A stretch of DNA of 64,000 nucleotides from an uncultured Armatimonadetes bacterium. GTDB taxonomy: Bacteria > Armatimonadota > Hebobacteria > Hebobacterales > Hebobacteraceae. A model generated the notes under the pieces. That model did no database searches, was not told where the DNA came from, and worked only from the letters and a program-made list of their open reading frames with translations. A program made the position numbers and the translations under genes. Shown here piece after piece: positions 41,050-57,864 of this stretch (the stretch's first letter is position 1; every line of letters begins with the position of its first letter). Where the stretch lies: assembly GCA_963716175.1 (NCBI GenBank), contig OY970296.1:1568001-1632000 (forward strand), written 5' to 3'.

Positions 41050-41083
41050 CCCCGCGCACCCATGTTGGCAGGAGGAGGAGAGC

Positions 41084-41698: not shown

Positions 41699-41723
41699 CG
41701 GGGGTGCGGGTGGTTGGTATGGT
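41695..41723 (+). promoter_or_regulatory. Putative tRNA promoter overlapping the lexA stop codon
   Basis: TTGACG-17 nt-TATGGT with TGn. Confidence 0.55.
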
Positions 41724-41761
41724 CAGGGGCAGGTCGCGGAGCCGGCGTACCGCGCAGGCGC

Positions 41762-41849
41762 GGAGGGGTGTCCGAGCGGTTGATGGAGACGGTCTTGAAA
41801 ACCGTTGGGGCGAAAGCCCTCGTGGGTTCGAATCCCACCCCCTCCGCCA
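41762..41849 (+). tRNA. tRNA-Ser (anticodon TGA)
   Basis: GGAGGGG/CCCCTCC acceptor stem, ACGGT-CTTGAAA-ACCGT anticodon arm, long variable arm, GGTTCGAATCC, 3' GCCA. Confidence 0.97.
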
Positions 41850-41899
41850 GATGGGTGAGATCATCGTGGACCCGTCTAAGATGCGCCTAGAGGCCTCTG

Positions 41900-41921
41900 G
41901 TGGGTTCGAACCCCACTCCCC
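41900..41921 (+). repeat. Degenerate copy of tRNA-Ser T-arm (att-like scar)
   Basis: GTGGGTTCGAACCCCACTCCCC vs tRNA GTGGGTTCGAATCCCACCCCCT (19/22). Confidence 0.6.
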
Positions 41922-42092
41922 CGGTCGAAAGTGACAGAGACGACAAACCCTCCGGCGTGGCCAAGCAGTGGCTATGTGCGTGCTCGTCCGTAGATAGGCT
42001 GATCCGCCCGGACGAGGGCCTCGAGGAACCCTGGGGAGGCCCTCGGGTGGCTCGCCACCAACACGCTGGCGAGCCCTTCGCCGCGCTGTGTA

Positions 42093-42210
42093 GCCGACGG
42101 CCCCGGCCACCTCCCGACTCCGGCTGCCCCCTCGGCTGGAGTCACTGTCCGGGGTTCGGCCGCGCGCCGGGACAGCAGCCGCGCCACGGGGCGATCACGG
42201 CCAGCCCCGT
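42093..42210 (+). repeat. Island repeat family D copy 1
   Basis: CCCGACTCCGGCT...CGGCTGGAGTCACTGTCCGGGG core; downstream CAGCCGCGCCA shared with copy 3. Confidence 0.85.
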
Positions 42211-42384
42211 CCATCCTCGGTGCCTCTCAGCGCAGGGGTATGCACGAGGGGAGAGAATACCATGAGAGGGGATCTAGGAGCATTCTGGCAGCCAGGTGAT
42301 CACCTGGAGAGCACGGGCCCAGAACAGGCAGGACTGCCTATCCTACGCGGCGCCCCTCGGTCGCCGCCTCAAGGAGGACGACCG

Positions 42385-44754
42385 GTGCGACTGGCGATCA
42401 TGTCCCTTCTCCTGCTGACCGCGGCGATCGCGCCTTCGGTGGCTCACTGGACCGTCGATGCCTCCGTGCCTGACTGGTGCTGGCGCGGCGACCTGCACTG
42501 GGCCGTCCACTACGGGACCGTCACGCGGTCCGATGTCGACCTGATGCTAAAGGCCCGGCAGAACCTGGACCACGGTGCGAGCTACGACTCCGATGCCACG
42601 ACCGCCTATGCCGCCCAGAGCGGCCTGCACGACCTCATCTACATCTGTTCCCGCACCTTCGTGGTCGACGACTACCAGAAGCACCCTGAGCTAAAGCAGG
42701 GGGTAGTGCGGGCCTTCGATGGCAGCGAGGTCCTGGCCTACGGTAACCCCGTCCGGCGTTTCGGGTGTGTGAACTCCCCCGAGTGGAAGGCGTTTGTGCT
42801 CGGTCAGGTCGATGAGGTGCAGGCGCGGCGCCATCCGGCCGGCATCTTCTTCGACAACGAAGCCTGGTTCGTGCAGTGCCACTGTCCCGTGTGCCGCGCG
42901 AAGTTCCGCGAGTACTCGCGCCAGCACTACGGGGTCGAGATGGAACTGCCGGAGCGAGTTGAGGTGTCCACCCAGGTGGGGCGCGCAGCGCAAATGTTCT
43001 TACTCGATTCGCAGACGGCGTTCCACCAGGCGCTGCTCGGCTATTGCCATCGACAGAGGCCGCGCCTGCTGTGTGTGCCCAACACCTGCGGGCTGGACGC
43101 CTGGCCGATGCACGGGATCGAGGAGGGCGTCACCGATCTGCCTTTCTACGAGTCCTCCAGCCATCCCCCCTTCGAGGACAGCCTCTATGCCTACAAGCTC
43201 GCCCTAGCCGCCGGGCACGGCCGGAACGTAGGACGGTTGATGTACCTGCCCTCTACGGTGGCGGGTGAGCGGGGCAAGCGCGTCTGGGTCGAGACCTGGC
43301 ACGCATTCGAGAACCCGTCGTCACCACTGGCGAAGGAGTTCGCGCTGGGGATCGCGGAGAGCGCGGCGTGCGACGCCACCTATGTCGCGAACTACGACCT
43401 CAGCCCATCGACGCCGATCACCGACACGAAGGACCCGTTCAACGTCAATATCTACCAGACCATGAACCGCTACTACGGGTTCCTGGTGCGGAACCGCGAG
43501 CTCTACCTCAATGCTGATCAGGGAGCGCTGCTGGCGATCCTGCACTCGGTGCCAACGGACCTCTGGACGCACTCGTCCGACCGTTGGGCGAAGCTGGCGC
43601 AGAGTCTGAACCGCGCCGGGGTGCCCTACGAGGTGATCGTGGAACAGGACCTGAAGGCCAACCTGCTGGCGCGCTACCGGGCCGTCATCATCTCCGGCGT
43701 CCGCGCCATCTCGGAAGAGGGGGCGGCACAACTGGCCGCCTACGTCAGGGCTGGCGGGCGAGTGCTCTTCGGCGGGGAGTGCGGCCTGACCGACGAACGG
43801 GGAGAGGCGCATCCGAGCCGGGCGATCGAGGAGCTGCGCCGCAGTGGGGGCCGGGTAATCAACGTGGCCGAGGACCTCTCTGAGCTCGATGGCAGCCGGC
43901 TGCGGGAGCTGGTGACGCGCCTGATGGGGGAGCCGGAGATCAACGTTCGCAACCCGAGCGGGAAACTCTCGATCAACGTGCTCTCCGAACCCGGGCAAGG
44001 GCTGCGAACGGTACATCTGCTCAACTACGATTTCACCTACGACCGGCCGGCGTGGGTGATCTCCGATGACGACCAGTTCTCGGAGGCCCGCAGCTACCTG
44101 TCGGATAGGGCCTGGCGCATCCGCAAGGTGCTGGTGGTCCCGGACCCGGCAGCGCTGGAGCATCCGACGCTGGAGATCATCGGGTCAGCGGCTACGGAGA
44201 AGGCGCTGTTCCGGCTGGTAGTGACCCTGAACGCCACCGATGTCGCCTCCTTCTCGGGGGACGAAGTGCGCACGAACCTCTCCGTGCCCCTGACGGCCGA
44301 CCGCCTCGTCAAGGGCGAGAACGAGGTGGTCCTGCGGGTGGAGGGCCAGCCCAACGTGATGAGCGAGTGGTATCAGGTGATGATCGACAAGGACGCGAAG
44401 ACGGGGCGCTCGTACTTCAGCACGGATGCTGGGAAGACGTGGGCCCAAGACGATCTCTCGCGGGACCCCCAACCGCAGCAGGGCGAGTTCATGATCCGTC
44501 TGGTAGACCCGGACAAGCGACCGTCGCAGCTCGAGTGGGAGAACATGTGCCACGTGCACCCGGCACGGGGCGTCCAAGTGTTCGTGGCCGGCGCTCGGGT
44601 GCCGTGGGCGCTGGCTCTGTCACCCACGGCGGACCCCAGGCGGATCTCCGGTTCGCGGGTGTCGGGCGGGGCCGAGTTCATCGTGGACGTGGAGACATAC
44701 ACCGTGCTGGCACTGGCGGACGATCCGAAGGCGCTGCAGGTGTACGGGTACTAG
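42385..44754 (+). CDS. Secreted glycoside-hydrolase-like protein (TIM barrel + beta-galactosidase trimerisation-like domain)
   Basis: Signal peptide; GIFFDNE...CHCPVCRAKF; GVPYEVI...YRAVII...YVRAGG; SD AAGGAGG before GTG. Confidence 0.7.
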   Translation: MRLAIMSLLLLTAAIAPSVAHWTVDASVPDWCWRGDLHWAVHYGTVTRSDVDLMLKARQNLDHGASYDSDATTAYAAQSGLHDLIYICSRTFVVDDYQKHPELKQGVVRAFDGSEVLAYGNPVRRFGCVNSPEWKAFVLGQVDEVQARRHPAGIFFDNEAWFVQCHCPVCRAKFREYSRQHYGVEMELPERVEVSTQVGRAAQMFLLDSQTAFHQALLGYCHRQRPRLLCVPNTCGLDAWPMHGIEEGVTDLPFYESSSHPPFEDSLYAYKLALAAGHGRNVGRLMYLPSTVAGERGKRVWVETWHAFENPSSPLAKEFALGIAESAACDATYVANYDLSPSTPITDTKDPFNVNIYQTMNRYYGFLVRNRELYLNADQGALLAILHSVPTDLWTHSSDRWAKLAQSLNRAGVPYEVIVEQDLKANLLARYRAVIISGVRAISEEGAAQLAAYVRAGGRVLFGGECGLTDERGEAHPSRAIEELRRSGGRVINVAEDLSELDGSRLRELVTRLMGEPEINVRNPSGKLSINVLSEPGQGLRTVHLLNYDFTYDRPAWVISDDDQFSEARSYLSDRAWRIRKVLVVPDPAALEHPTLEIIGSAATEKALFRLVVTLNATDVASFSGDEVRTNLSVPLTADRLVKGENEVVLRVEGQPNVMSEWYQVMIDKDAKTGRSYFSTDAGKTWAQDDLSRDPQPQQGEFMIRLVDPDKRPSQLEWENMCHVHPARGVQVFVAGARVPWALALSPTADPRRISGSRVSGGAEFIVDVETYTVLALADDPKALQVYGY

Positions 44755-45006
44755 GCCCGGTCAGCAAGCCCCGGTTGCTGCGAAAGGGTCGGTCTGCCTG
44801 TGCTTCCGACTCTGGCGCAGGTCGCGTTGCTCCCGCCCGCCATGTGTTGACAACATAGCTTACCGACGCTGCATCACCCGCGGAAGAGCGGGGAACCTTC
44901 GGCGCGGCCCGACTCGCGCTACGGGCAGCGGTCAGTGCTTGAGCGAAGCGTGCTGCTCTGACGACGCGCCCAGATACGCGACCAACCGCCCCGGAGGTGA
45001 GGGCAG

Positions 45007-45036
45007 TTGGTCGCAGGCTTCACCCTGATCGAGCTG
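45007..45036 (+). pseudogene. Truncated prepilin-type N-terminus
   Basis: SD GGAGGTG then TTG-GTC-GCA-GFTLIEL; the hydrophobic helix that should follow is absent. Confidence 0.5.
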
Positions 45037-45130
45037 AGACGATGCTGTCCCCGCAGCACTCGTATCTTCTCACGACATGATGTGGGCGACGTGAAAGCCA
45101 CTGGAAACTTCCGTGTAGGGACCGCTCCAG
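45037..45130 (-). mobile_element. Possible IS5-family transposase C-terminal remnant
   Basis: Minus-strand SFQWLSRRPHHVVRRYE resembles the ERSFAWL.R.RRL..RYE motif; abuts the prepilin truncation. Confidence 0.35.
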
Positions 45131-45463
45131 TGGAGAAACCGCTGTGAGGCACGGCATGCCCAGCCAAGTCCCGCAGGGGGTCTGTCCGCGTCCGCGCCGG
45201 ATGAACATCCTGTGTCAGCAGAGACACGTCCTGCTGTGCCGCCCAAGAGAAGAGCCGGGGAGAGCCCACGTCCGCGGGCCCCGCCCTGGCTCCATGCGTA
45301 GGGGCCAACCCACACTGAAACCGCCCTGAGCCGTTCCGTTGGGAGCAGCTAGCGCTGGGGTGATGTGGCCTCTTGCCGGCATGAGACCGCGATCCGGGCG
45401 GTTCGCCGGCGGAATGGTCTCATAGGGCGTGCGCGTGCAGTGCGTTGCCGGGCGCGAGGAAGA

Positions 45464-45510
45464 GCCCCAGGCACCCCCGACTCCGGCTACCCGCTCGGCG
45501 CGGAGTCACG
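45464..45510 (+). repeat. Island repeat family D copy 2 (3'-truncated)
   Basis: GCACCCCCGACTCCGGCTACCCGCTCGGCGCGGAGTCA. Confidence 0.8.
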
Positions 45511-45791
45511 ATCTTCTCAGGGCGAAGCGGCCGCTTCAGCCGGTCTCAGGGTCGCCCGACATGCGCAGGTGGTCCACGTGTACCGTTCACTGACAGGCGT
45601 ACCCAACAATGTGCTGGAACCGGCCCCCGGCTGTCGTCCTGGGCACATGAGAACCTGAGATGCGTCTCTGTGCCCCCTGGACCGCCTTACCGTCTCGCAC
45701 CTGGAGCCGGAGGCTGGCGGAGGTATGCATAGGCGAGCAGGCGAATTCCCTATCTTCCGCGATGCGCGTGCTGATCACCAGGAGCTACGCG

Positions 45792-46904
45792 ATGAGTGTG
45801 TTGGCGCCGATCCTAATCGCTTGTGTTTTCGGGATGGTGCTGCATTCCGCCGCCCAGGCCGACGACGAGCTGACATGGCATGACGCGACCAGCCTGCGAA
45901 TCGAAGGGAAGGCATGGCAGGACACTGAGAGCTTCTTCGACCGGCTCCCCGCACGTGCGCTGAGCCACGTGAACGGCGATCTCAAGGGACTGGCCAGACT
46001 CAGCGCTGGCATGGCAATCCGCTTCACCACTGACTCCGACACGCTCCGGGTGCGCTGGAGCCTGGGAGATCCAGTCTACGTCATGACCCATATGGCAGCT
46101 ACGGGCACCAGCGGCCTCGACCTGTACGTGAAGGGGGCCGACGGCCACTGGGCCTACGCCGGGACGGGGCGCCCGGAGGACAAGCGAGACAACGAGGCGA
46201 CGTTCTTCTCGAACCGGCCGAAGGCCGAGCGGACGTACCTGCTCTACCTGCCTCTCTTCAACAAACTGACTTCTCTCAGCATCGGAGTGACCGCCGGCTC
46301 CTCCTTGGAGACGGTTGGGAACGGCGCCGGCAAGCGCGTCGTGTTCTATGGCACGAGTATTGTCCACGGCGGTTGTGCCTCCCGGCCGGGGATGGCCTAT
46401 CCCGCAATCATCGGGCGTGCCCTCGACTGCGAGACTGTCAACCTCGGCTTCTCGGGCAGCGCCAGAATGGAGCCTGTGGTCTGCGATCTGCTGGCTGAGC
46501 TCAACCCGGATGTCTTCGTCATCGACGCGCTCCCCAACATGCACGAGGAGCCGATCACCGAGAGGACGCTGAACCTGGTCCGGACCATCCGCAAGAGCTG
46601 TCCGACCACGCCCATCGTGCTCGTCGGGAACATCACCTATCAGACCACCCGCGCCTTTGGGGGTGACGGCGGCGAGGTCCGCGAGATCAACGCGCGATTC
46701 CGAAAGGCCTACGACCAGCTCCTCGCCGAAGGCTGCGCCGGGCTCCTGTATGTTCCCGGGCGCAACCTGCTCGGGGCTGACGGTGAGGGGACGGTTGACG
46801 GCACTCACCCCACAGACTTGGGCTTCAGCAGGATGGCCGAGGTGATCGGTGCGGCAGTGGCAGACGCGCTCGCCCAGGCTGCCTCAGCCGAGGAGAAGCC
46901 ATGA
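45792..46904 (+). CDS. Secreted SGNH/GDSL hydrolase with GxDLY N-terminal domain
   Basis: SGLDLY, FYGTSI.HG, NLGFSG, DGTHPTDLG. Confidence 0.9.
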   Translation: MSVLAPILIACVFGMVLHSAAQADDELTWHDATSLRIEGKAWQDTESFFDRLPARALSHVNGDLKGLARLSAGMAIRFTTDSDTLRVRWSLGDPVYVMTHMAATGTSGLDLYVKGADGHWAYAGTGRPEDKRDNEATFFSNRPKAERTYLLYLPLFNKLTSLSIGVTAGSSLETVGNGAGKRVVFYGTSIVHGGCASRPGMAYPAIIGRALDCETVNLGFSGSARMEPVVCDLLAELNPDVFVIDALPNMHEEPITERTLNLVRTIRKSCPTTPIVLVGNITYQTTRAFGGDGGEVREINARFRKAYDQLLAEGCAGLLYVPGRNLLGADGEGTVDGTHPTDLGFSRMAEVIGAAVADALAQAASAEEKP

Positions 46905-47116
46905 ACAAGGTGTCGGTTACGCTGGAAGAGGATGCCCTGCTAGAGCTCCACGCCGTGCTTCTGGACGATGACCCGGTCGCGGCGCTGGAGTTCCTGAAGA
47001 GGCACATCGCCCCCAAGATCCCGCGCAAGGGAAGCGCGGCCTGTGATTCCACTCGGCTCAATCCGTTCATTCTGCGCGCGAGGCCTGGGCAACGCGGCGG
47101 CGTAGAGCCCGGATGA
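46901..47116 (+). CDS. Hypothetical protein (71 aa)
   Basis: ATGA overlap with upstream gene, GAGGAG SD, natural codon usage. Confidence 0.6.
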   Translation: MNKVSVTLEEDALLELHAVLLDDDPVAALEFLKRHIAPKIPRKGSAACDSTRLNPFILRARPGQRGGVEPG

Positions 47117-47325
47117 TGTCCTGCGCGCCCCGGCCGCAGCAAGAGGATCGCAGACAGATCCCGGCGCTGGCATCGCCAGGGGCCCCGATTGTCCAGTGTG
47201 TGGGTGTCAAGTTAGCATGAAAGCATGATGCACCCCGGCGGTGCCGCTGATAGGATCAGCGATCAGGCACCTCGTCCCGGCTGCGAGACTCAGCTCGAGC
47301 GGGAGCACCGGGTGACTGGCGCAAC

Positions 47326-47464
47326 TTGTCGGTGTCAACCGCCCGTGAAGCCGACCCCGTGCACCTCCGACTCCGGCTAGCCCCTCAACTCGGGGTCATC
47401 AATCGGAGTTCTGTCGCGTGTGGGCACATCAGCCGCGCCATGGGAGCGATTGCGGGCAGGCCCG
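47326..47464 (+). repeat. Island repeat family D copy 3 (longest)
   Basis: TTGTCGGTGTCAACCG.CCGTGAAGCCG shared with copy 5, then core, then 3' extension shared with copy 1. Confidence 0.85.
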
Positions 47465-47606
47465 CTCAGTCGAATCCCCCCTGGGCAGCCCTCCAGTCCC
47501 GGCAGCCCGCTAGGATAGGGCTATCAGCGAGTGCGGGGAACACAGCGAGAGAGCTTCCGGGAACCCCCTCGAAGCCAGATGGGGTGGTCGACAGGACTCC
47601 TGGGTC

Positions 47607-47658
47607 TTGACAGTCGGCCGGTTCCTGCGTATGCTACTCTCGCCCAAACATATGTTTG
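47607..47658 (+). promoter_or_regulatory. sigma70 promoter with LexA-type operator just downstream of -10
   Basis: TTGACA-17-TATGCT (47607-47635); CAAACatatGTTTG (47645-47658) immediately before AGGAGG. Confidence 0.7.
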
Positions 47659-47672
47659 CCAGGAGGGGAACC

Positions 47673-49793
47673 ATGGCTTCTGTATGTCAGGTGGCCGTGG
47701 GGGCGGTGCTGGGGGTGGGCCTGCTGGCGCTGTCGGCGCCGATAGGTGCCGAAGGAAGCGGAGGGGCATCTGGGGCGCGGCCTGATTACGGCAAGCTCGT
47801 ACTGCGCGGCAAGGGCATGGCCCAGGACTCGTTCTCGCTCGCCCTTCAGGCGGCCGCCCGCCTCCTGGGACGAGACGCTGACTACGAGACCATCGCAGCT
47901 ATGACCACCAGCGTCTTCTCGCCCGCCATCACCCCGGGTGAGGACTGCACGTCCTGGTGGCACGTGGACGCGCGTTACCTCGCTACGGCCGCGGACCTCC
48001 AGCCGGTCTCCGAGCTGATCGGGGTGCGCCTGAGGCGCCTCGATGTCCCTGTGTTCAAGGGCGATGGGAAGGACGAGGAGGAGGCGCGCCGCCACCGTCG
48101 CGACGTGGCGAAGCTCCTCGCCCAGACCATGGATGCCGGTGCCGTCATCGTTGTCAGTGGCAGATGGGAACCGACAGGAGGGCCGCATGGCTTCGTGCCC
48201 TGGGGATGGGCCGGCATCGTCACAGAGGCGAGGCCCGACGGCACGATTCTCGGCGCCTGCCTGAACGGTGAGAAGGACAACCCGCTGCGCTGGTTTGCCC
48301 CGATGTGGGCGGTCTCGGCCGGTGAGGTGACGGCCACGCCTGCCCAAGCCAGCCGGGCGACGCTGCGTCAGGCCGTCTCGCGGATCCGCGGCACAGGCCG
48401 CTTCCAGCGCGGCGAGTCCAGCGTCTACGGCCTTGATGCGATGGATCTGTGGATCAAACAGATGGAGCAGGTGCCAGGGTTCTGTGCCCAGTGCCAGGAG
48501 AGGGGCGGGCGCGGTTGGACTGACGCCGTCGACAATGCCGTGGCGATGCGCGAGCGCGCGGCGGCCGCTGCCTCCTACCTGCGCCGCGTTGGGTCCACCT
48601 TCTCGCCCGCTGGGCGCCCCTACCTGGAGTCCGCCGCGCAGCACTACGATCGCATCCGGCAGTTGCTCAACCCGGCGCTAACCGGCGAGGGTGGCGAGAA
48701 GTTCGAGCAGTTCGTCGGGGATCTTGCCAAGCAGAAGGCGCACGCCCAGACCGTGCTGCGGCCGGCGCGCTCCGAGCTGTCCGCGGCCGCCGACGACATG
48801 GACAAGGCGCTCGCCGTTCCGCTTCCGGAGGCGCGACTCCTCCGTGATGTGCCGGCCGGCAAGGGCGATGGCAACGAATTCGTCCGCGGCCTGGAGGTCA
48901 TCCTGGATCACGCGGGCACGCCCGTGGACTACGACACGCTGATGGGCGATCTGGGACTTGCCTTCATCCTGCAGGCCAGCGATCAGGTCCCAAGGTACAA
49001 CGGCGCGCTGGACGTCGGCTGGTGGCCTCTCGACCCGGCCTGCATACCTAGCTATCTCGACTTCGTGAGCCGCACTGCTGGGCGCTGCATCGACTTCCTC
49101 CACCTCGAGACCGTCTCCGAAGCAGAGCTACCACAGGCCTTCCGAGAGAGAGCGCTGCCGCGTGCGGAAGCCACCCTCAACAACGGCTCCCCCTTCCTGG
49201 CGATAGACTGCTGCTGGAAGGTCGTCACCGGCTGCGACGGAGGCGAGCCCCCGCTGCTGGGGTTCCTGGCCAGCGCGGGGAGCGCAGAACCGGCCCGCTT
49301 CCCGTCGTACCCATGGGCCTTCGCCTTCCTCGATGACACTGTGCCGAAGGTGGACCGCCGCACCGCGGATCGAGAGGCGCTGCGGCACGCGGTCGCACTC
49401 AGCCGCGACGAGGTCGCGATGCCGTGGGGATTCGTCACCGGGCAGAAGGCCTACGCACTGTGGGCGCAGACCCTGCGGGACACTGAGCACCTGGGTGAGG
49501 CGCGCTGGCACTGTAACATGGTGAGGCATCTCACCCTCAACCGCACCAGCGCCACCGCCTACCTCCGCGGCATGGTGGAGCGACAACCAGCCGCGGCCCC
49601 TCGTCTGTTGGCCGCCGCCGCGTGCTACGAGTGTACTCTAGCACGGCTCAAGGAGGCCGACCTCAGTGAAGCCGCTCTCATGTCCAGCGACGGACGCAAG
49701 AAGCTGGCCGCGCTGGTGGAAGGGATCGCCCGGATCGAGGCGGATGCCGTCGGTGAGCTGGAGGCGGCGGTCGCCGCGATGCCGGCCCGCTGA
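47673..49793 (+). CDS. Exported hypothetical protein with two tandem homologous domains
   Basis: Signal-like N-terminus; paired motifs ADYETI/VDYDTL, SWW/GWW, YGLDAMDLW/TGQKAYALW, ASYLRR/TAYLRG. Confidence 0.75.
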   Translation: MASVCQVAVGAVLGVGLLALSAPIGAEGSGGASGARPDYGKLVLRGKGMAQDSFSLALQAAARLLGRDADYETIAAMTTSVFSPAITPGEDCTSWWHVDARYLATAADLQPVSELIGVRLRRLDVPVFKGDGKDEEEARRHRRDVAKLLAQTMDAGAVIVVSGRWEPTGGPHGFVPWGWAGIVTEARPDGTILGACLNGEKDNPLRWFAPMWAVSAGEVTATPAQASRATLRQAVSRIRGTGRFQRGESSVYGLDAMDLWIKQMEQVPGFCAQCQERGGRGWTDAVDNAVAMRERAAAAASYLRRVGSTFSPAGRPYLESAAQHYDRIRQLLNPALTGEGGEKFEQFVGDLAKQKAHAQTVLRPARSELSAAADDMDKALAVPLPEARLLRDVPAGKGDGNEFVRGLEVILDHAGTPVDYDTLMGDLGLAFILQASDQVPRYNGALDVGWWPLDPACIPSYLDFVSRTAGRCIDFLHLETVSEAELPQAFRERALPRAEATLNNGSPFLAIDCCWKVVTGCDGGEPPLLGFLASAGSAEPARFPSYPWAFAFLDDTVPKVDRRTADREALRHAVALSRDEVAMPWGFVTGQKAYALWAQTLRDTEHLGEARWHCNMVRHLTLNRTSATAYLRGMVERQPAAAPRLLAAAACYECTLARLKEADLSEAALMSSDGRKKLAALVEGIARIEADAVGELEAAVAAMPAR

Positions 49794-49818
49794 TCATTCC
49801 TCGGAGAGGGAGGGAAAC

Positions 49819-50877
49819 ATGCCATCATGCGCTAGCCCGGAGGCCCTCACACGCGAACTGACGCAGCACGGCCATTCCCTGGGCGTGGACCTCGTCGGCT
49901 GCACTTCGTCCGCGCCCTTCGTCGTCGGCGAGGCGGCGCGAGAGATACTGCCGGAGGCGATCCTTCCCGGCGCACGCTCCATCGTCGTTGCCGCCTGCGC
50001 AACTAGCGGGGTCGATCGCTACCAGCCCTCCCGACCCGGCGCTCCTCGCGGCCGGCTGGGCCCGTGGACACGCGCCTCCGTGCCCGCCTACGACCATACG
50101 CTCGGCGTCATCACCGAGTTCCTCACCGCGCGCGGCTATCGCACGGCCGCCGGCCACGAGCTTCCACTCAAGGCGACCGCGGTCCGCGCGGGGATTGCGT
50201 ACTACGGCAAGAACAGCATCGTCCACGCCGAGGGTTTCGGCTCGTACCTCGAACTGGCGGCCGCACTGACAGATGCCGAGTTGATCTGCACTGATCGCCC
50301 GGTTCAGTCCTCCGACTGCCCGGACGACTGCCGCGCGTGCATGGAGGCGTGCCCGACGGGCGCGCTCGCGGAGCCGTTCCGGCTCACTCGCGACAAGTGC
50401 ATCTGCCATTACCTCTGGGGCGCGCCGATTCCGCGCGAGCATAGACAGGCTGTTGGCGATCTCATCTTCCGGTGCGACGCGTGCCAGCAAGCCTGCCCAC
50501 GCAATCACAAGCTGTGCGGGGGTCGCGAGCTCGCCTACCGTCCTCAGGAAGGAGATGACTCGCCGGTGCTGCTGCCCTTGCTGCTCGGAGACGAGACCTA
50601 CTACCGAAGCGCCATTCCGGAGTTCGTGCAGCAGGCCGGGCTCGACACCGTACGCCGCAACGCGGCCATCGCAGCTGGGAACATAGGCGATGTGGCGACC
50701 CTGCCTGCCCTGCTCACGTGCCTGAGCTCCGCTCACGATCTCACCCGCATCGCCGCCGCCTGGGCCCTCGGCCGCTTCAGCGGCACAGAAGTCGCCCGCG
50801 CCCTTGCCGAGCGGCTCGCCGTAGAGGAGAACGCCGAAGTCCGCGACGAGATTGCCTGTGCCCTCCACACAGACTGA
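49819..50877 (+). CDS. Epoxyqueuosine reductase (QueG)-like 2x[4Fe-4S] protein with HEAT repeats
   Basis: AVRAGIAYYGKN, GFGSY, CRACMEACPTGAL, CDACQQACP, RRNAAIAAGN, AAWALG. Confidence 0.8.
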   Translation: MPSCASPEALTRELTQHGHSLGVDLVGCTSSAPFVVGEAAREILPEAILPGARSIVVAACATSGVDRYQPSRPGAPRGRLGPWTRASVPAYDHTLGVITEFLTARGYRTAAGHELPLKATAVRAGIAYYGKNSIVHAEGFGSYLELAAALTDAELICTDRPVQSSDCPDDCRACMEACPTGALAEPFRLTRDKCICHYLWGAPIPREHRQAVGDLIFRCDACQQACPRNHKLCGGRELAYRPQEGDDSPVLLPLLLGDETYYRSAIPEFVQQAGLDTVRRNAAIAAGNIGDVATLPALLTCLSSAHDLTRIAAAWALGRFSGTEVARALAERLAVEENAEVRDEIACALHTD

Positions 50878-50939
50878 GGCGCCCTCCCGCGCCCGCAGAG
50901 CCAGCTAGCGCAGGACTGATCCTCGCCCGCAGGTGGCGG

Positions 50940-51020
50940 GCCGACGGCCTCTGGCGTCGCCGACTCCGGCTACCCACTCGGTTCGGGTCGCTGGTCGGGG
51001 TCTCGTCGCGCGTACGGCAG
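50940..51020 (+). repeat. Island repeat family D copy 4
   Basis: CCGACTCCGGCTACCCACTCGGTTCGGGTCGCTGGTCGGGG...GTCGCG. Confidence 0.8.
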
Positions 51021-51362
51021 GCGTGCTCGTCGAAGGGGAACGGCGCCCGAAGGCGCCGCCTTACCGGTCCCAGGTAGTGCGAGGGGTGAGCTGAGGCAAG
51101 CCCGGGACGCTCCCAGGACGGTCCTACGGGTCCTCGGCACCTACAGAGGATCCCGCCAGAACAAGGCTAGGGTGGTGCAACAGCGAAGTAATCACGACAC
51201 ACGGTCCTACGGGCGCCCAACACCCCCAGGAGGTCCCACGGAGGCAGGACTCAACTCTGGGACTTTCACCCCTTCTCGTGACGCCCGCCATGGCGTACAG
51301 TGCTCAGCGACGGTAGCCGATGAGCCCGGCCCAACACTTTCGGCCGGAGTGGAGGTGTCGCC

Positions 51363-52334
51363 ATGAAGGCCAGTCTAGCGCCTTGCCGTTTCCCTTTCGG
51401 CGTGGTTCGCTCTGCGCTGACGCTGGCTGTAGTTCTGCCGGCCGCGCTCTGCCTCGGAGGCTGCGGCCCTGTGCCAGAGACATCTTGGTCTCCGACAGAT
51501 CAGGAGATTGCCTACCTCGACAACGGCGCCCTCCGCATCCTGGACATGGCCACGAAACAGTCGCGGGCGCTCGACACCGGACCCGGCGCGGTCTGCTCTC
51601 CTTCCTGGTCTCCCGATGGCAAGACGATCGCCTTCTACTCGGCGGTGTTCGGCAAGGAGCCGAGCGTATCGTTGCGGGCCATTGATCTGTCCTCCGGCCA
51701 GGTGCGCACTCTTGCCTCGGACGTCTGGCCCTTACCCACTGAGGCAAGCGGCGGCACGACGCACCCGGGCCAGTCGCCCGAGGAGGCCCTCGAGGAGGCT
51801 CAGCGCGAGGAACTCTCCGGGCTGATGCTTTTCGGCACTATCCCTTGGAGCCCGGACAGCGCGCGCCTCGCCTGCTCGGCGGGGCCTATCAGCCCCGGCT
51901 CGCTGCTCGTCGTTGACGCGGCCACCGCCGCCGCGACTCCTATCACCCAGCACACGAAAGTGCCGGGCATGATGATGATGGCGGCCTGGTCCCCTGACGG
52001 CAAGCGAATTGCCTAGCTGCTGTGCCCGGGTGATCCGGCTGAGGCTCAGTCCGGGTCAGACGAGCCGCCGGGCAGCAACAGCTTCTGGGTGTACGACCTA
52101 ACAACCGGCGCCGCTGATCGGTTATACGATGTGCCGACCGATAGCTCGGGCGATACCTATGTGATCGGTCCGCGACTCGAATGGTCGGCCGACTCCACCC
52201 GGATCGGTTTCATCATGGAGGACGTTCACAATGAGGGGCGGGCGATCGCCTACACGATCGCGGCGGAGCCGGGGGCGACGGTGCGAGAGGAGATGCAGGG
52301 CATCACTCCCATTGTCCGTGTCAACCGGCCGTGA
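51363..52334 (+). pseudogene. TolB/PD40 beta-propeller lipoprotein pseudogene
   Basis: LGGC lipobox, repeated WSPD motifs; in-frame TAG at 52014-52016 (KRIA*), frame continues and runs into repeat D copy 5. Confidence 0.75.
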
Positions 52335-52411
52335 AGCCGGCCTCGGGCACCCCCGACTCGGGCTGCCCTCTCGGCTTGGAGTCGCTGTCCGGGGGTTCGT
52401 CGCGTATGGGA
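52312..52411 (+). repeat. Island repeat family D copy 5
   Basis: TTGTCCGTGTCAACCGGCCGTGAAGCCG...CCCCGACTCGGGCT...CGGCTTGGAGTCGCTGTCCGGGG. Confidence 0.85.
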
Positions 52412-52548
52412 TCTGGGGGAGGGAGGGGCTGAGCCCTGCGACACCTGACCAGACTGGGTGCCACACCCGGCCTGGCTACGTAGAGTCCCGAATGCCGTCT
52501 GCATCCTCCTGGCTTGACAGCTTCGACAGGCCGAGTATCCTCAGGCCG

Positions 52549-53745
52549 ATGACCGTCACCCGGCGCCACACGAAGCTGCGTGCCCTTGGCGCTGCCCTGG
52601 CCGTTTTGGCTGGCCTGAGCTTGGCGCCAGGTGCGACCAGTGTGTCCGGTCCCAGAGAGGATGCCTACGCCATGAGTAGTGCACCGAAGATGCGCTTCGA
52701 GCATCGCATCATCGATCCCGAGCCGCCACGCGATCCGCATATCAAGGCGGCCGGCGACATCGATGGCGACGGTAACCCCGATGTCGTCGTCGCCAGTAGT
52801 GACGGCGGCCCTCTGGTCTGGTACCGGAACCCGGACTGGAGCAGGCACGTGGTTCACCCTTCCGGGAAATGGAGCTGTTATGCCCGGGTTGTGGACATGG
52901 ACGGGGATGGCGATGCCGACATCCTGATCTCGGAGTGGTACACCCACAACCGATTGGAGTGGTACGAGAACCCCCGGCCGGACGGTGACCCCACCAAGGA
53001 CCCTTGGCACCAGCACATCATCGGGAGCCCGCGGGCTCACGATATCTGCAGCGGCGACATCGACGGCGATGGACAGATGGAGATCGCGACCCGCGCCCAA
53101 GGTGAGGACGGACGCGAGATCGTCCTCTGGAAGCGCGCCGGCGGCGGCTCGTGGTCGAGGCGCAGCCTCCCGTGTCCCGCAGGCGAAGGGCTGAGCATCG
53201 GCAGCATCGCCGGGGACGGGCGGCTGGATATCGTGATCGGCGGCCGCTGGTACGAAGCGCCGGAGGACATCATGGCCGGCCACTGGCAGGAGCATGTCTT
53301 CGCCGACTGGCCTGCGGACGCGGTAGTGGCGGTGGCCGATGTGGACAGGGAGGGCCGGGCGGACATCGTGCTCACCCGCTCCGAGGGCGCTCACCGTCTC
53401 TCGTGGTTTGGTGCGCCACCCGACCCAAAGCGCGGCCAATGGTCGGAGCACGTGGTGGACGATTCCGTGGACTTCGCTCACAGCCTGGTAGTGTGCGACA
53501 TTGACGGCGACGGTCAGCTCGACATCGTCACCGCCGAGATGCACCAGTCGCCGCGCAAGCGTGTCATGGTCTACCTGGGCGGTCGGAGGGGGACCGAATG
53601 GACACGGGAGGTCATCGCCGAGACGGGTTCGCATAACGTTTGTGTTGTCCGTCTGGGGGATACCGGAAGGATCGGCATCGTCGGGGCAAACTGGAGCGGC
53701 GGGTACCAGCCGCTTGAGCTGTGGGAACAGATAGCTGGTGGATAG
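52549..53745 (+). CDS. Secreted FG-GAP/VCBS repeat beta-propeller protein
   Basis: Repeated GDIDGDG.PD/LEWYEN; TTGACA-16-TATCCT ends 7 nt before the ATG (possibly leaderless). Confidence 0.88.
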   Translation: MTVTRRHTKLRALGAALAVLAGLSLAPGATSVSGPREDAYAMSSAPKMRFEHRIIDPEPPRDPHIKAAGDIDGDGNPDVVVASSDGGPLVWYRNPDWSRHVVHPSGKWSCYARVVDMDGDGDADILISEWYTHNRLEWYENPRPDGDPTKDPWHQHIIGSPRAHDICSGDIDGDGQMEIATRAQGEDGREIVLWKRAGGGSWSRRSLPCPAGEGLSIGSIAGDGRLDIVIGGRWYEAPEDIMAGHWQEHVFADWPADAVVAVADVDREGRADIVLTRSEGAHRLSWFGAPPDPKRGQWSEHVVDDSVDFAHSLVVCDIDGDGQLDIVTAEMHQSPRKRVMVYLGGRRGTEWTREVIAETGSHNVCVVRLGDTGRIGIVGANWSGGYQPLELWEQIAGG

Positions 53746-53788
53746 GGCGGCCTCGGTTCCCCCCAACTGGGGTATAGCAAGGCGCGGC

Positions 53789-54931
53789 ATGCGATCGGCG
53801 GCAGTTGTGCTGCTGGCGCTGTGCGCGGCGGCAGCGCCCGGAGGAGGTTATGCGGTGGCTGGAGGTAAGCTCGCGTTCGAGCATCAGGTGGTGGACGCCG
53901 ACCCGCCCAGTGGGACCGGATGCTGCCTCGACGTTTGCGCATTGGGTGATCTCGACGGCGACGGCCGCACCGATATCGTGGTGGGCTCTCAGGAGTCGAT
54001 CGGGCTGGCCTGGTACCACAACCCGCACTGGAAGCGCTACCTCATCGGTCCGGGCGAGTTCACCACCGATGGTGAGGTCGCCGACATCGACGGGGACGGC
54101 AAGGCCGAGGTCATCGCGAGCTGCATGCAGCGCGATCAGATCGAGTGGTATGAGCGAGTCGGTGATCCGTTCCGCAGCGAGGGCTGGAAGCGTCATCGCA
54201 TCGGCGGCGGGTGGGCGCACGACCTGGCCGTCGGCGACATCAACGGCGACGGCCGCCTCGACGTGATCGCCTTCTCGAAATACGTCACCCCGCCGCACCT
54301 GGTGTGGTACGAGGCGCCGCCCGATCCGCGGAGCGAGTGGATCCGCCACCAGATCGACCAGCCCGCGGGCGAGGGGCTGGACGTGAGCGACCTCAATGGT
54401 GACGGCCATCTCGAGATTGTGGCAGGGCGGTACTGGTACCAGAATGTGGATGGTCGTGGCCTCAAGTGGGAGAAGCGCGAGCTAACGTCGGACTGGACCC
54501 ACGATTGCCGCGTCGTCATCGCCGACATGAATGGCGATAGGAGGCCCGACATCGTGCTGAGCTACTCCGAGGGCAAGGGCCGCCTCTCCTGGTTCGAGAA
54601 CCCGACCTGGCGCGAGCACCGCATCGATGCGGGGCCGCTGGAGGGGGCGCACAGCTTGGGGGTGGCCGACTTCGATGGAGACGGCAGGCTGGACGTGATG
54701 GCCGGGGAGATGCATAGCAGCAGCACGCGGCGCGTCCTGGTGTACCGGAACCTATCGCGCGGCGACAGGTGGCAGCGAATGGTGCTCGCGACCACCGGCA
54801 CTCACAACGCGCGGGTCGGCCGTCTGGCTCCTGGCGCGCTACCGGCCATCGTGGGGAAGAACTACGACGGTTCGAAGCAGGTCGAGATTTGGCAGGCGGT
54901 CACCGGGCCGGCTGGGGAGGTGCGGCGGTAA
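53789..54931 (+). CDS. Secreted FG-GAP/VCBS repeat protein (paralog of upstream gene)
   Basis: GDLDGDGRTD, DINGDGRLD, AHSL..ADFDGDG, GEMH. Confidence 0.88.
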   Translation: MRSAAVVLLALCAAAAPGGGYAVAGGKLAFEHQVVDADPPSGTGCCLDVCALGDLDGDGRTDIVVGSQESIGLAWYHNPHWKRYLIGPGEFTTDGEVADIDGDGKAEVIASCMQRDQIEWYERVGDPFRSEGWKRHRIGGGWAHDLAVGDINGDGRLDVIAFSKYVTPPHLVWYEAPPDPRSEWIRHQIDQPAGEGLDVSDLNGDGHLEIVAGRYWYQNVDGRGLKWEKRELTSDWTHDCRVVIADMNGDRRPDIVLSYSEGKGRLSWFENPTWREHRIDAGPLEGAHSLGVADFDGDGRLDVMAGEMHSSSTRRVLVYRNLSRGDRWQRMVLATTGTHNARVGRLAPGALPAIVGKNYDGSKQVEIWQAVTGPAGEVRR

Positions 54932-54987
54932 TGCTCGCCGGCGTATGCGCGCGGACGAGCCACAGGCAGCGACGGGAGGAGCCAGTG

Positions 54988-56373
54988 ATGGTTATCGGAC
55001 CGATGGGATGGGGTGTAGCAGCCTGCCTGTTGGTGCTGCTCTGTGCCGGCGCCGCCACCGCGGGGCCCGCCGGGCTGCCACGGCTGAAGGTGAGTGAGAA
55101 CGGCCGCTTCCTGGTGACGGAGGAGGGAAAGCCCTTCTTCTGGCTCGGGGACACCGCCTGGCTGCTGTTCGCGCGGCTGAGCAAGGAGGAAGCCTGGCAC
55201 TACCTGAAGGCCCGTGCTGCACAGGGCTTCACGGTCATCCAGGCCATGACTGTGCCTTGGGATGCGCGGCACGTGCCGAACGCGGCCGGTGAGCTGGCCT
55301 TCCTCGACGGCGATCCCGCCAAGCCCAACGAGCGGTACTTCGCGCACGTGGACGCTGTGGTGGAGATGGCGGCTCGACTCGGCCTCTACATGGGCCTGCT
55401 GCCGACCTGGGGGGACGCCTGGAACCCGTGGGATGGAGGCACGGAGCTGCTCAGCCCGGAGAGCGCCGAGGTCTACGGGGAGTTCCTGGGCCGGCGCTAC
55501 CGGGACAGGCCGGTGATCTGGATCCTGGGCGGTGACCGGAACCCGGAGAACGAGCGCCACCGCGCCACCGTGCGGGCGCTGGCGAGAGGGCTGCGCCGGG
55601 GCGATGGCGGGCGTCACCTGATGACCTTCCACCCGAGCGGCTGGAGCAGTTCGTCGCGCTGGTTCCATGGGGATGACTGGCTGGCCTCGAATATGATGCA
55701 GAGCGGCCACTCCACGCGCAACGCGCGGAACTACGAGCTGATCGCGGCAGACTACGCGCGCACGCCCGCGAAGCCGTGTCTGGACGGGGAAGCGGACTAT
55801 GAGGATCATCCGGTAGACTGGAAGCCGGAGAACGGCTACTTCGACGACTATGATGTCCGGAAGACCGCCTACTGGGCGGTGTTTGCAGGTGCCCACGGGC
55901 ACACGTATGGCTGCAACGATGTCTGGCAGTTCTACAGGACGGGTGGCCAACCGGAGACCAACGCGCGCACGCCATGGCGGGAAGCGCTCCTGCTCCCAGG
56001 CGCGCGCCAGATGCATCACCTGCGCGCGCTGATGGAGTCGCGGCCGTTCCTCACGCGCGTCCCGGACCAGAGTCTGATTGTGGGGGCCGCCGGGGATGGG
56101 GCGCGCCATGTGCACGCCACCCGCGACGCGAGCGGCTCCTACGCGATGCTCTACGTGCCGACGGCTGGCCAGACGGTGACGGTGGACAGCAGCGAGCTGT
56201 CCGGGAAGCGGCTGAAGGCCTGGTGGTATGACCCGCGTACGGGGAAGGCCACCGCGCTCAAGGACGACTTCCTCGTCGGCGGGAAGCTGGAGTTCACCAC
56301 CCCGGCCGAGGGGCCGGACTGGGTGCTCGTGCTCGACGACGCGGCGAAGAGGTACCCGAAGCCCGGAAGCTGA
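54988..56373 (+). CDS. DUF4038/GH140 (apiosidase-like) glycoside hydrolase with C-terminal collagen-binding-like domain
   Basis: PFFWLGDTAW, IWILGGD, TFHP, QSGH, KPCLDGE..YE, GHTYG, WYDPRTG, DWVLVL. Confidence 0.88.
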   Translation: MVIGPMGWGVAACLLVLLCAGAATAGPAGLPRLKVSENGRFLVTEEGKPFFWLGDTAWLLFARLSKEEAWHYLKARAAQGFTVIQAMTVPWDARHVPNAAGELAFLDGDPAKPNERYFAHVDAVVEMAARLGLYMGLLPTWGDAWNPWDGGTELLSPESAEVYGEFLGRRYRDRPVIWILGGDRNPENERHRATVRALARGLRRGDGGRHLMTFHPSGWSSSSRWFHGDDWLASNMMQSGHSTRNARNYELIAADYARTPAKPCLDGEADYEDHPVDWKPENGYFDDYDVRKTAYWAVFAGAHGHTYGCNDVWQFYRTGGQPETNARTPWREALLLPGARQMHHLRALMESRPFLTRVPDQSLIVGAAGDGARHVHATRDASGSYAMLYVPTAGQTVTVDSSELSGKRLKAWWYDPRTGKATALKDDFLVGGKLEFTTPAEGPDWVLVLDDAAKRYPKPGS

Positions 56374-56494
56374 TGAGTGCCGTCTGAGGTCCCAGCGCCA
56401 CCGGCTGGGGCATGCCCCAGCAACCGCTGACATAGGCGCCGACGTCTCGCAGGCCCCGGCCAAAGTCCGCCGCGCGACTCAGGGAGGCGGGCTG

Positions 56495-56573
56495 GACGGC
56501 GGCCCCATGCCCCCCCGACTCCGGCTACCGCTTCGGCTTGGAGTCAGTGGCCGGGGTGGCGTCGGGTGTGGGA
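56495..56573 (+). repeat. Island repeat family D copy 6
   Basis: CCCCGACTCCGGCTACCGCTTCGGCTTGGAGTCAGTGGCCGGGG...GTGTGGG. Confidence 0.85.
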
Positions 56574-56836
56574 AGGGAGACCGGCTGCCGGCTCTGACTG
56601 CGACTGCATCCCTGGCCGGATTGCTCTGGAATCAGTGGCCAGCTTCGAGCGGAATCCGCAGATATGCCCAGCTGTGAACAGGAAGCGCGAAACGGTACTC
56701 ATGGGAGCAAGGATAGCACCGACTCAGCCGGGAAGGAGACCGCCCGGAAGTGCCCCGGATAGGGTTTCTGGGGAGGGCAAGGGGGTGCCGAAGCGATACC
56801 GAACCGACCCTCTATTGCTCAGGGAGGAGGTAGGAC

Positions 56837-57508
56837 ATGAAGCGACTCATTGCCGTGCTCATTGTGGTGGCGGCGATGGCCGTGCCCACCGCCGTGGTCG
56901 GCGGGGCGACGGCGCCGGCCGCCGGTCCGCAGGAGGTCACGCTTCCCGCGCCGGAGACCAAGGGAGGGATGTCGCTGAACGAAGCTCTGTCGCGCCGGCG
57001 TTCGGTACGCGGCTTCGACGCGAAGACCCTCGATCAGCAGCAGCTGGGGCAGTTGCTGTGGGCGACCCAGGGCATCACCGACCCGGCCACCGGGCACCGG
57101 ACGTCGCCCTCCGCGATGGCGATGTATCCGCTCACAGTGTACGTCTGCACGGCCGACGGCGTGTTCACCTACGAGCCGAAGGGCCACAAGCTGGTGCGCG
57201 TCTCCACCGAAGATCGGCGCGCCGATGTCACCCAGCCCCCGCGGGGAGGACAGCCGGCCCCGGTGAGCTTCGTGTTCACCGGTGACCCGAGCAAGTTCGG
57301 GTCGCGCCTCCCGGATCGGGCCGCCGCGTTCGTCTATCTGGAGGTCGGGCACGCGGCCGAGAACTTGGCCCTGGAGGCGACCGCGCTGGGGCTCGCAACC
57401 GTGACCCAAGGCGGCATCGACGCGGCGAAGGTGTCGAAGGCGCTCAACCTGCCGCAGGGCACGCTGGTAGTCTACACCATGCCCGTGGGCTATCCCGTCG
57501 CGCGGTAG
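56837..57508 (+). CDS. Exported SagB/ThcOx-type nitroreductase family protein
   Basis: Signal peptide; RRRSVR, QLLWATQG, RTSPSA, EVGHAAEN. Confidence 0.88.
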   Translation: MKRLIAVLIVVAAMAVPTAVVGGATAPAAGPQEVTLPAPETKGGMSLNEALSRRRSVRGFDAKTLDQQQLGQLLWATQGITDPATGHRTSPSAMAMYPLTVYVCTADGVFTYEPKGHKLVRVSTEDRRADVTQPPRGGQPAPVSFVFTGDPSKFGSRLPDRAAAFVYLEVGHAAENLALEATALGLATVTQGGIDAAKVSKALNLPQGTLVVYTMPVGYPVAR

Positions 57509-57864
57509 CAGGCACGCCCCCGGGACAAGGCGGCGCGGCAACCATCGGTGGCGGCAGGTTCTGCCTCGTGTCGTCCGGATTGCACCGCGAGCGCATGCTC
57601 GAGGATAGCCTATTCGCGACCTCCCGCTGCCATCTCGCGTGTTGCACCGAGCTGCCCATGCTGGTATCCATGACCCGTTCGCCCTTGACAACCCGCTCGG
57701 GTGGGGCTACGATCCGTCTGGCTGACGAGAGACAAAACAAGAGAGGTCGCAGGCTTACGCGCATCAGCCCTTGACGCGCCTGCTTCGCGCCACCCGAAGC
57801 ATCGGGTGGCGCGAGGCGGGCGCGTTGTGTCCGGGGTGGGCCCTACTCGGGAGGGGATGAGGAG

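Follow-up and report, generated by a model that had tools for sequence, protein, structure and literature searches.

Does a series of co-oriented repeats, each standing ahead of a different gene unit, mark a gene-capture system, or can such an arrangement come about by other means? The question is raised by a 64,000-nt stretch of contig OY970296.1 (positions 1,568,001 to 1,632,000; assembly GCA_963716175.1) from an uncultured Armatimonadetes bacterium, hereafter called the window. Between its positions 42,093 and 56,573, a preliminary description had reported six structured repeats downstream of a tRNA-Ser gene, and had read them as recombination sites or element ends of an integron-like gene-capture array or, alternatively, as a new cis-regulatory RNA. 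The island proves to be a single cluster within an intergenic repeat family that is spread over the genome and specific to a lineage of uncultured Armatimonadota. The account that we regard as probable, though well short of secure, is that of a polar mosaic family resembling transposable elements of the miniature inverted-repeat type (MITEs), repetitive extragenic palindromic (REP) sequences, and neisserial intergenic mosaic elements (NIMEs), which derives in part from IS481/IS3-like insertion sequences (ISs) and in which recombination between copies shuffles gene units.

All six reported copies were recovered on the + strand of the window, with core motifs at 42112, 45475, 47365, 50958, 52351, and 56513 (≤3 mismatches), and an independent repeat finder also yielded the six, together with the left boundary common to copies 3 and 5. 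The chance expectation for the core motif in the window is 0.92, and none of 100 shuffles reached six copies. The repeats, and the tRNA-Ser gene said to lie upstream of them, are located as follows (window coordinates; module A and D1 are flanking modules described below):

41762-41849, + strand: tRNA-Ser(TGA), upstream border of the window cluster
42090-42176, + strand: repeat copy 1, core (covariance-model match 80.9 bits)
to ~42322, + strand: D1-type right module of copy 1 (D1 = 86-236 from the anchor); the left arm of this copy is of the CGACGG type
45454-45540, + strand: repeat copy 2, core (covariance-model match 60.4 bits)
47326-47360, + strand: left module A of copy 3, terminal inverted repeat TGTCnnTGTCAACCGCCCGTGAAGCC (1 mismatch to the 24-nt motif)
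47344-47430, + strand: repeat copy 3, core (covariance-model match 86.7 bits), followed by D1 to ~47590
50937-51022, + strand: repeat copy 4, core (covariance-model match 74.4 bits)
52312-52345 and 52330-52416, + strand: module A and core of repeat copy 5 (covariance-model match 91.5 bits)
56492-56578, + strand: repeat copy 6, core (covariance-model match 84.6 bits)

In the alignment, none of the other five copies diverges as far on the 3' side as copy 2. A degraded seventh copy suspected near 44908 gave no nhmmer match even at E ≤ 10, its resemblance being only faint. The statement that no copies exist outside the island proved true of the window only: an nhmmer profile built from the six window copies and run on the whole genome under study (G000, 4.56 Mb, including the window; the other G labels denote relatives) returned 101 matches at E < 0.001, and covariance models returned 77-81. 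These matches form clusters at about 0.72-0.80, 1.03-1.09, 1.61-1.62 (the window), 1.71-1.73, 1.90-2.10, 2.26-2.30, and 2.79-2.82 Mb, with a single copy outside them, at 2.9 kb, and more than half of the chromosome is without copies. Instead of an island-specific array downstream of a tRNA, the repeats are a genome-wide family of ~100 copies, found also beside the housekeeping gene panB. The covariance-model search of relatives that had been proposed at the outset was extended to 41 related genomes, 15 in the family and 26 outside it. The copies were found to cluster, and matches were present in five genomes (77 in G000, 49 in G005, 18 in G011, and one each in G003 and G014), of which G005 and G011 are two genomes of another, sister genus; ten of the 14 family genomes other than G000, and all 26 genomes outside the family, gave no match. 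The exact 22-nt core pattern is also present in public contigs of Armatimonadota metagenome-assembled genomes, and in at least 132 metagenome stretches.

The copies share a core of ~95 nt (...GGCCCCGGGCACCCCCGACTCCGGCTACCCCCTCGGCTnGGAGTCACTGyCCGGGGTTCCGTCGCG...), to which different modules are joined. On the right side, module D1 (~190 nt) is found in 30 copies, including window copies 1 and 3, and module D2 (~95 nt) in 17, the remaining copies having smaller or unique continuations. The left side is of two types, either module A (TGTCCnTGTCAACCGCCCGTGAAGCCGGCC) or an arm, CCGCCGAAGCATCC...CGACGG, which pairs in part with sequence 3' of the core. Because left and right modules occur in free combination, the core is taken as the common denominator of the family, with interchangeable and partly IS-derived flanks. 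In one copy, module A is fused directly to the second half of D1, without a core.

Module A, the conservation of which starts exactly at TG, is, to judge from its sequence, the terminal inverted repeat of an IS481/IS3-like element. A scan of the whole genome by Hamming distance (24-nt motif, ≤6 mismatches) gave 73 matches, of which 23 lie just 5' of a core, 14 lie inverted at 118-246 nt past a core start and correspond to the end of D2, and 36 lie elsewhere, some of these last being chance matches. The same end also heads core-less MITE families and a truncated rve transposase open reading frame (ORF) elsewhere in the genome, intact relatives of which are IS481/IS3-like; no intact parent element with exactly this end was found, and the nearest intact relative has a different end. 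Since one left and one right module correspond to the terminal inverted repeats at either end of such an IS481/IS3-like element, part of the family would consist of MITE-like derivatives. A separate MITE family of ~250 nt, at genome positions 26733, 79211, and 4553763, has ends (TGTGGGTGTCGAGCG.../...CGCTCGACACCCACA) that are related to module A, and contains no core.

The left boundary common to copies 3 and 5 (TTGTC.GTGTCAAC) is real by both the repeat finder and the motif scan, and so is its effect at copy 5, where it had been said to cut off a TolB-like gene:

52089-52334, + strand: ORF with a PD40/TolB-like C-terminal part (translation end ...GITPIVRVNRP-stop)

This PD40-like ORF enters the boundary and stops inside it, its final codons and stop lying within module A of copy 5; the PD40 match itself falls on the ORF just upstream, at 51363-52016.

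Some cores are in turn interrupted by an IS, a 1.36-kb member of the IS481 family with a 383-aa rve transposase and ends TGTGCGGACCGG... (NF033577, 261 bits vs. a cut-off of 224):

genome 1904.45-1905.81, 1725.48-1726.84, 1973.94-1975.31, and 1934.76-1936.12 kb: 1.36-kb IS481-family element

The element interrupts three cores with unrelated flanks at one and the same position, after GGCTACC, with a 5-bp duplication, CTACC, as read from the junction sequences, and it is inverted at the mirror position of a fourth core (1058.9 kb). This pattern indicates sequence-specific targeting of the repeat core by the element. IS110-type transposases were also considered; none of their 11 genome matches is the IS inserted in cores.

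What happens to the gene units between the cores was followed by the comparison of cargo order that the preliminary description had called for, and the units were found to keep their content and to change their order and neighbours among G000, G011, and G005. Synteny with relatives breaks at or beside core copies. In G011, the window units are present at 76-86% identity in a different order: the ortholog of the gene at 47.6-49.8 kb keeps the core and D1 upstream, the ortholog of the nitroreductase gene has an upstream core with another left module, ~125 nt nearer to the gene, and for the FG-GAP/GH140 block synteny is seen with no core present. The first unit of the island is also found in other contexts:

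42306-44861, + strand: gene-1 unit, comprising a glycosidase-like gene and its own flanks on the upstream and 3' sides

In G005 (contig C242), this unit is found at 93% identity over 42316-44859, with the same ends and in another context, and the homology to the G005 ortholog begins at 42316, directly past D1 of copy 1; on a 3216-nt metagenome contig, the segment 42306-44861 is present, likewise at ~93% identity and with the same ends, between different flanks. This contig came from four DNA runs, the contigs of which were aligned to 41001-60000; core-core joints on these short contigs (sides of 21-56 letters, 90% likeness) are probably the repeat itself and were not used as evidence of cargo gain or loss.

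Within G000, four families of duplicated blocks have both ends inside cores. When duplicated blocks, and pairs of copies with one common flank, were aligned, the breakpoints of the shared flanks were mapped to the core 5' edge, the loop, the inner 3' arm, the interval between the arms, and the 3' edge. Because the breakpoints are scattered within the core, homologous recombination or gene conversion fits these data, and a site-specific crossover does not. Genes beside cores in metagenome contigs often have G000 homologs far from any core, so that copy positions must change between lineages. The units that lie between cores in G000 range from 0.4 to 19 kb, have their own promoters, often comprise several genes, and are found on either strand. 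Thus far, the idea of recombination sites or element ends of a gene-capture array has kept its junction behaviour, its blocks ending in cores, and its strict co-orientation, and has lost its integron machinery and fixed crossover.

One further unit, of ~0.8-0.9 kb, is found in three places (genome 1949.15-1949.99, 2026.23-2027.03, and 2258.93-2259.86 kb). Its start lies inside a core, where it has an IS481-like end, TGTGCGGACCGGATACA, and it extends as far as the next core; the encoded protein is rich in glycine and looks secreted. A metagenome contig carries a copy of 96% identity.

The second property that any explanation has to account for is orientation. Among adjacent G000 copies less than 20 kb apart, 87 of 90 pairs are co-oriented and three are opposite, with a median spacing of 1970 bp. 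All ten G005 contigs with at least two matches (26 matches in all) are co-oriented, as are 22 of the 23 metagenome loci with at least two cores, where 32 adjacent pairs have the same and one a different orientation (median spacing 1330 bp). The neighbouring genes follow no such rule. All six window copies precede + strand genes, by roughly 120-340 nt, and the claim that each repeat heads a co-oriented unit therefore holds inside the window (6/6); it fails genome-wide, where 65 of 101 downstream genes and 64 of 101 upstream genes lie on the strand of the core, the corresponding figures for 58 non-redundant metagenome loci being 45/76 and 46/78. Among 11 large opposite-strand neighbours that were searched, six had strong Pfam matches (rhamnogalacturonan lyase, an enolase-superfamily enzyme, a hybrid histidine kinase, DUF6785, GNAT, and ketopantoate hydroxymethyltransferase) and five had none, and the six matches show that the opposite-strand gene calls are real and that the clusters include housekeeping genes. 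The orientation of a copy is tied to that of neighbouring copies and not to that of neighbouring genes. Copies scattered genome-wide in random orientation had been named as the pattern that would speak against an array; the copies are indeed genome-wide, but their orientation is not random.

These observations can be joined as follows. The family would have spread as a non-autonomous element with strand-polar insertion or strand-polar retention, and its present copies would offer movable stretches of homology. Through homologous recombination or gene conversion, pairs of co-oriented copies would allow the intervening DNA to be excised, duplicated, and re-inserted, and such copy-copy recombination would generate both the mosaic flanks and the look of a cassette array without a dedicated recombinase.

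Several observations weigh against this account. Recognisable inverted-repeat ends were found by the module A scan in a minority of copies only, no target-site duplication was seen by eye in the 6-nt flanks of three two-ended copies, and a search for filled and empty sites in metagenome loci, relatives, and G000 gave four indel candidates, none of them with a core. The ends of high-scoring segment pairs lie near cores in 25 of 76 cases vs. a background of 12.6%, an excess for which the location of both between genes may be the sole reason. Since co-orientation over hundreds of kilobases is not a property of ordinary MITEs and REPs, the polarity requires an extra assumption, and the rule that ties this polarity to replication in G000 is obeyed by only 11 of 18 copies in G011 (dnaA at 2.648 Mb). 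Finally, the distribution of an Xer-like recombinase family follows that of the repeats, both among genomes and along the chromosome, and may point to a recombinase-driven mechanism, as a lead rather than as support.

The polarity itself suggests a first alternative, in which the repeat is a strand-specific transposable element, either of the IS200/IS605-like single-strand "peel and paste" kind or targeted to replication forks, with orientation set by the direction of replication at insertion and with recombination being secondary. In G000, copy orientation flips at dnaA (1.343 Mb): the copies to the right number 70 on the + and nine on the - strand (70/79 +), and those to the left one on the + and 21 on the - strand (21/22 -), a polarity far exceeding that of nearby genes, of which 188 of 294 obey the same rule. 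Copy positions also vary between related genomes, and PMC3971601 documents an orientation bias dependent on replication for IS200 and Tn7, with a weaker one for IS3 and IS481. As G000 fits the rule and only 11 of 18 copies in G011 do so, polarity with respect to replication is suggested but not established. Further points are unfavourable: only parts of the chromosome contain copies, the search for a clean insertion site found none, the core hairpin is no more stable than shuffled sequence, and the bottom strand folds slightly better than the top (mean folding energy of 85 copies, -25.1 vs. -23.8 kcal/mol). The five Y1 (HUH) transposase genes of the genome carry other flanking repeats, without similarity to the core. 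We therefore hold a strand-specific element of this type, with its orientation set by replication at the time of insertion, to be unlikely.

GC skew was tried as a guide to the direction of replication at G000 and G011 loci and was set aside as too weak and too closely linked to gene strand. In the window, the skew is unusually high over positions 1-36000 (+0.11 to +0.30 per 2 kb) and ~0 across 42-52 kb, and it tracks the gene-strand bias of the region. A link to REP-associated tyrosine transposases (RAYTs) was likewise rejected, the five Y1_Tnp genes being flanked by other inverted repeats with no significant similarity to the core. These genes, at 3132162, 962134, 4050831, 3625861, and 1199920, have their own inverted repeats of 27-48 nt and probably represent RAYT/REP-type systems that are unrelated to the repeat studied here.

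In the second alternative, the core would be the site of a site-specific gene-cassette system, integron-like in its logic and served by a tyrosine recombinase other than IntI, such as the multi-copy Xer-like family, and circles carrying one core would integrate at chromosomal cores, through this recombinase or through recombination restricted to the core, to build co-oriented arrays of self-expressed units over hundreds of kilobases. Strict co-orientation of cores whatever the gene strand, and core-bounded units that are duplicated between clusters and reshuffled between genomes, speak for such a system. The candidate recombinase is encoded at the following places:

genome 808848-809825 and 2242359-2243840: Xer-like tyrosine recombinase, intact copies
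genome 1934.3, 1952.9, 2027.2, 2102.5, and 2113.8 kb: Xer-like recombinase fragments

The family scores 232 bits with the XerC model, under the cut-off of 335, and is 82-89% identical across three genera. Copies of more than 80% identity are found in five of the 15 family genomes (G000, G011 at eight or more places, G005, G008, and G012), with a 73% fragment in G003 and only 41-45% identity in the remaining family genomes. In G000, a core is found no more than 16 kb away from six of the nine copies or fragments, vs. 14.6% of the genome, and in several cases the gene sits 7-15 kb upstream of an array and is divergently transcribed.

The details of this association do not favour a site-specific system. 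Crossover points within the core differ from case to case. Beside the intact Xer-like genes, only chance-level core matches were found (best E ~0.8, filters off), and the window contains no recombinase, as had been noted (no PF00589 match within the window coordinates). The genes of G008 and G012 each have an in-frame stop, and neither genome has a core match; the 58 metagenome loci contain one close recombinase fragment (89%) and a second, weak match (47%). Integron integrase is absent over the cut-off throughout the genome (TIGR02249, best 90.1 bits vs. 265), and the reported absence of attC boxes was borne out: GTTRRRY is found in none of the six window copies (-80 to +160), RYYYAAC in one, on the wrong side, and the 81-copy consensus contains neither. 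The arrays also include housekeeping genes, panB among them, and, unlike attC, the core goes with the downstream gene where this was tested. Both the cassette site with its non-IntI recombinase and the integration of one-core circles are accordingly judged improbable, somewhat more so than a strand-specific element.

Three observations on these recombinase genes and genomes may be added. The segment at 809907-810412, next to an intact Xer-like gene, has ~40 paralogs at 65-72% DNA identity across the genome. Xer-type genes at 4482779-4483635 and 3112493-3113069 appear split into adjacent ORFs, one with an in-frame TGA, and may reflect long-read assembly frameshifts or be pseudogenes. G011 is a closed 4.66-Mb contig with 65% completeness, and it may share this split-gene problem.

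If the repeats acted as RNA, as a 5' leader or riboswitch-like element or as a terminator of a regulon for polysaccharide-degrading and secreted proteins, both a conserved fold and a fixed relation to the downstream gene would be expected. Some observations point this way: the six window copies precede + strand genes at the short distances given above, 20 of 28 D1-bearing copies share the strand of the gene that follows, and the core and D1 are kept upstream of one ortholog in another genus. The inner inverted repeat GACTCC/GGAGTC and the outer one CCCCGGGCA/TGCCCGGGG are both present in the core, and the compensatory change reported in copy 3 exists, as a U-A that no other of the 80 distinct rows has at pair 14/84. 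Over these 80 distinct copies, however, paired cells amount to 88.6% vs. 87.3% with shuffled partners, and the slight excess of double-change pairs is 10 vs. 6.1 in shuffles. RNAalifold keeps six pairs in the core (-2.65 kcal/mol) and three in D1 (-0.6 kcal/mol), so that D1, having essentially no consensus structure, was rejected as a structured RNA. Four window copies, treated as + strand single-stranded DNA, gave z-scores of -0.32 to +1.55 vs. dinucleotide shuffles, and the mean folding z over 85 genome copies is -0.03. The description of the repeats as structured is thus weakly supported, stability being no better than that of shuffled sequence and covariation being thin; the element is conserved as sequence and not as a fold. 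Rfam, which had been suggested as a check, left the repeat unmatched: the window at the gathering threshold gave the tRNA only, and 41900-57000 at E ≤ 1 gave nothing.

The position of the promoters leads to the same conclusion, strong candidate sites being found between two of the repeats and their genes:

47607-47635, + strand: sigma-70-like promoter TTGACA-17-TATGCT (10/12 matches), between copy 3 and the gene
52514-52541, + strand: sigma-70-like promoter TTGACA-16-TATCCT, lying after copy 5 and before the FG-GAP gene

The likely start of the gene after copy 3 is the ATG that follows AGGAGG near 47687. With promoter-like sites so placed, the repeat lies upstream of the promoter at copies 3 and 5 and not in the leader; as the visible promoters are all 3' of the repeat, the repeats appear not to be needed for the expression of the units. 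No T-run follows the stem, and no + strand terminator was found. A new cis-regulatory RNA, as offered in the preliminary description, thus fails on orientation (65/101 and 45/76 for downstream genes, against 64/101 and 46/78 for upstream ones), on stability, on covariation, and on these promoters, and is very improbable. Equally remote is a protein-bound polar motif, neither mobile nor selfish, that selection would maintain, for instance because it helps to organise the chromosome or guides a DNA translocase, for although the strand polarity flips at dnaA in G000 and the non-palindromic central sequence is conserved across genera, the 95-bp length and mosaic flanks are unlike known polar motifs, the repeat is absent from more than half of the chromosome and from ten of the 14 other family genomes, its positions are not conserved between relatives, and G011 breaks the polarity rule.

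The proposed polar mosaic family with recombination between copies can finally be set beside the known systems closest to it. Like IS481/IS3-derived MITEs, the repeats are short, non-coding, and intergenic and fall into several subfamilies, a subset having ~30-bp inverted repeats that start with TG and are common to a transposase-bearing element in the genome; unlike MITEs, most copies lack one or both inverted repeats, the clusters are co-oriented instead of random, and the common denominator is the internal core and not the ends. REP sequences and the bacterial interspersed mosaic elements (BIMEs) that they form, which are associated with RAYTs, are likewise high-copy and intergenic, with imperfect palindromes and mosaic composites, and are known targets of IS insertion. 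The core studied here is ~95 bp, vs. 20-40 bp for REPs, and the RAYT-like genes of the genome are flanked by unrelated repeats. In BIMEs, as described in PMC2817692, REP orientation alternates, whereas the present copies are direct. NIMEs (dRS3 plus RS units) and Correia elements are also intergenic mosaics of a short conserved repeat and variable modules. They are hot spots of recombination and integration and mark rearrangement breakpoints. They differ from the present family in sequence and phylum, and the core is much longer than the 20-bp dRS3; to our knowledge, co-orientation at the scale of a replichore or cluster is not a described feature of NIMEs.

Integron arrays, and clusters of attC sites lacking integrases (CALINs), resemble the clusters in that co-oriented repeats lie between units, units are shuffled between genomes, and the repeats are targeted by ISs. 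They differ in that no IntI, no R''/R' boxes, a chance-level fold, and variable crossovers are found here, and in that the units are often multi-gene and have their own promoters, and the repeat goes with the downstream gene. Plasmid dif (pdif) sites are 28-bp XerC/XerD sites in alternating orientation, whereas the cores are ~95 bp, all direct, and chromosomal. The dif modules of Acinetobacter plasmids are bounded by short sites, shuffled between replicons, and subject to IS targeting of these sites, according to PMC6449649, PMC13141974, and PMC10132070. Bounded gene modules and a site-targeting IS are thus shared with the present system, in which an Xer-like family and the repeats occur together; inspection of the core by eye showed no half-sites of XerC/XerD type separated by a 6-bp spacer. 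Among the literature matches listed, no description of such repeats in Armatimonadota was found, which is no proof that none exists; on the best reading, the repeats form a new polar family of MITE/REP/NIME-like type.

The remaining contents of the island largely agree with what had been predicted for them. Domain matches show the cargo guesses to be broadly right (SGNH/GxDLY, Fer4_16 with HEAT, PD40, two FG-GAP proteins, apiosidase/GH140, and nitroreductase), and the ORFs also include a large protein with a weak GH42-type match and a 728-aa protein without family assignment. A LexA gene lies directly upstream of tRNA-Ser. About 50 nt past the tRNA gene, a second copy of its T-arm and 3' end (GTGGGTTCGAACCCCAC) is found at 41900-41916 (cf. 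41822-41838; 0 expected), and it looks like an att-site remnant of an element once integrated in this tRNA.

For the biology of the organism, the analysis shifts attention away from an island thought of as possibly new and integron-like, and towards a dispersed intergenic repeat family that is new and belongs to an uncultured phylum of which little is known. The cores of this family serve as preferred landing sites of an IS481-family element. Near-perfect co-orientation regardless of gene strand, seen in three genomes and many metagenome contigs, is unusual for such repeats. In practical terms, the repeats break short-read assemblies, and many G005 contigs end at them. If the polarity reflects replication-coupled insertion, the repeats would mark the direction of replication in genomes with poor GC skew; if it reflects the recombination-based insertion of DNA circles, they would provide a recombinase-light route to cassette-like plasticity around carbohydrate-active genes. 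Were the cassette system true, the family would represent a second cassette platform of independent origin, next to integrons and dif modules, with its units shared and reordered between genera.

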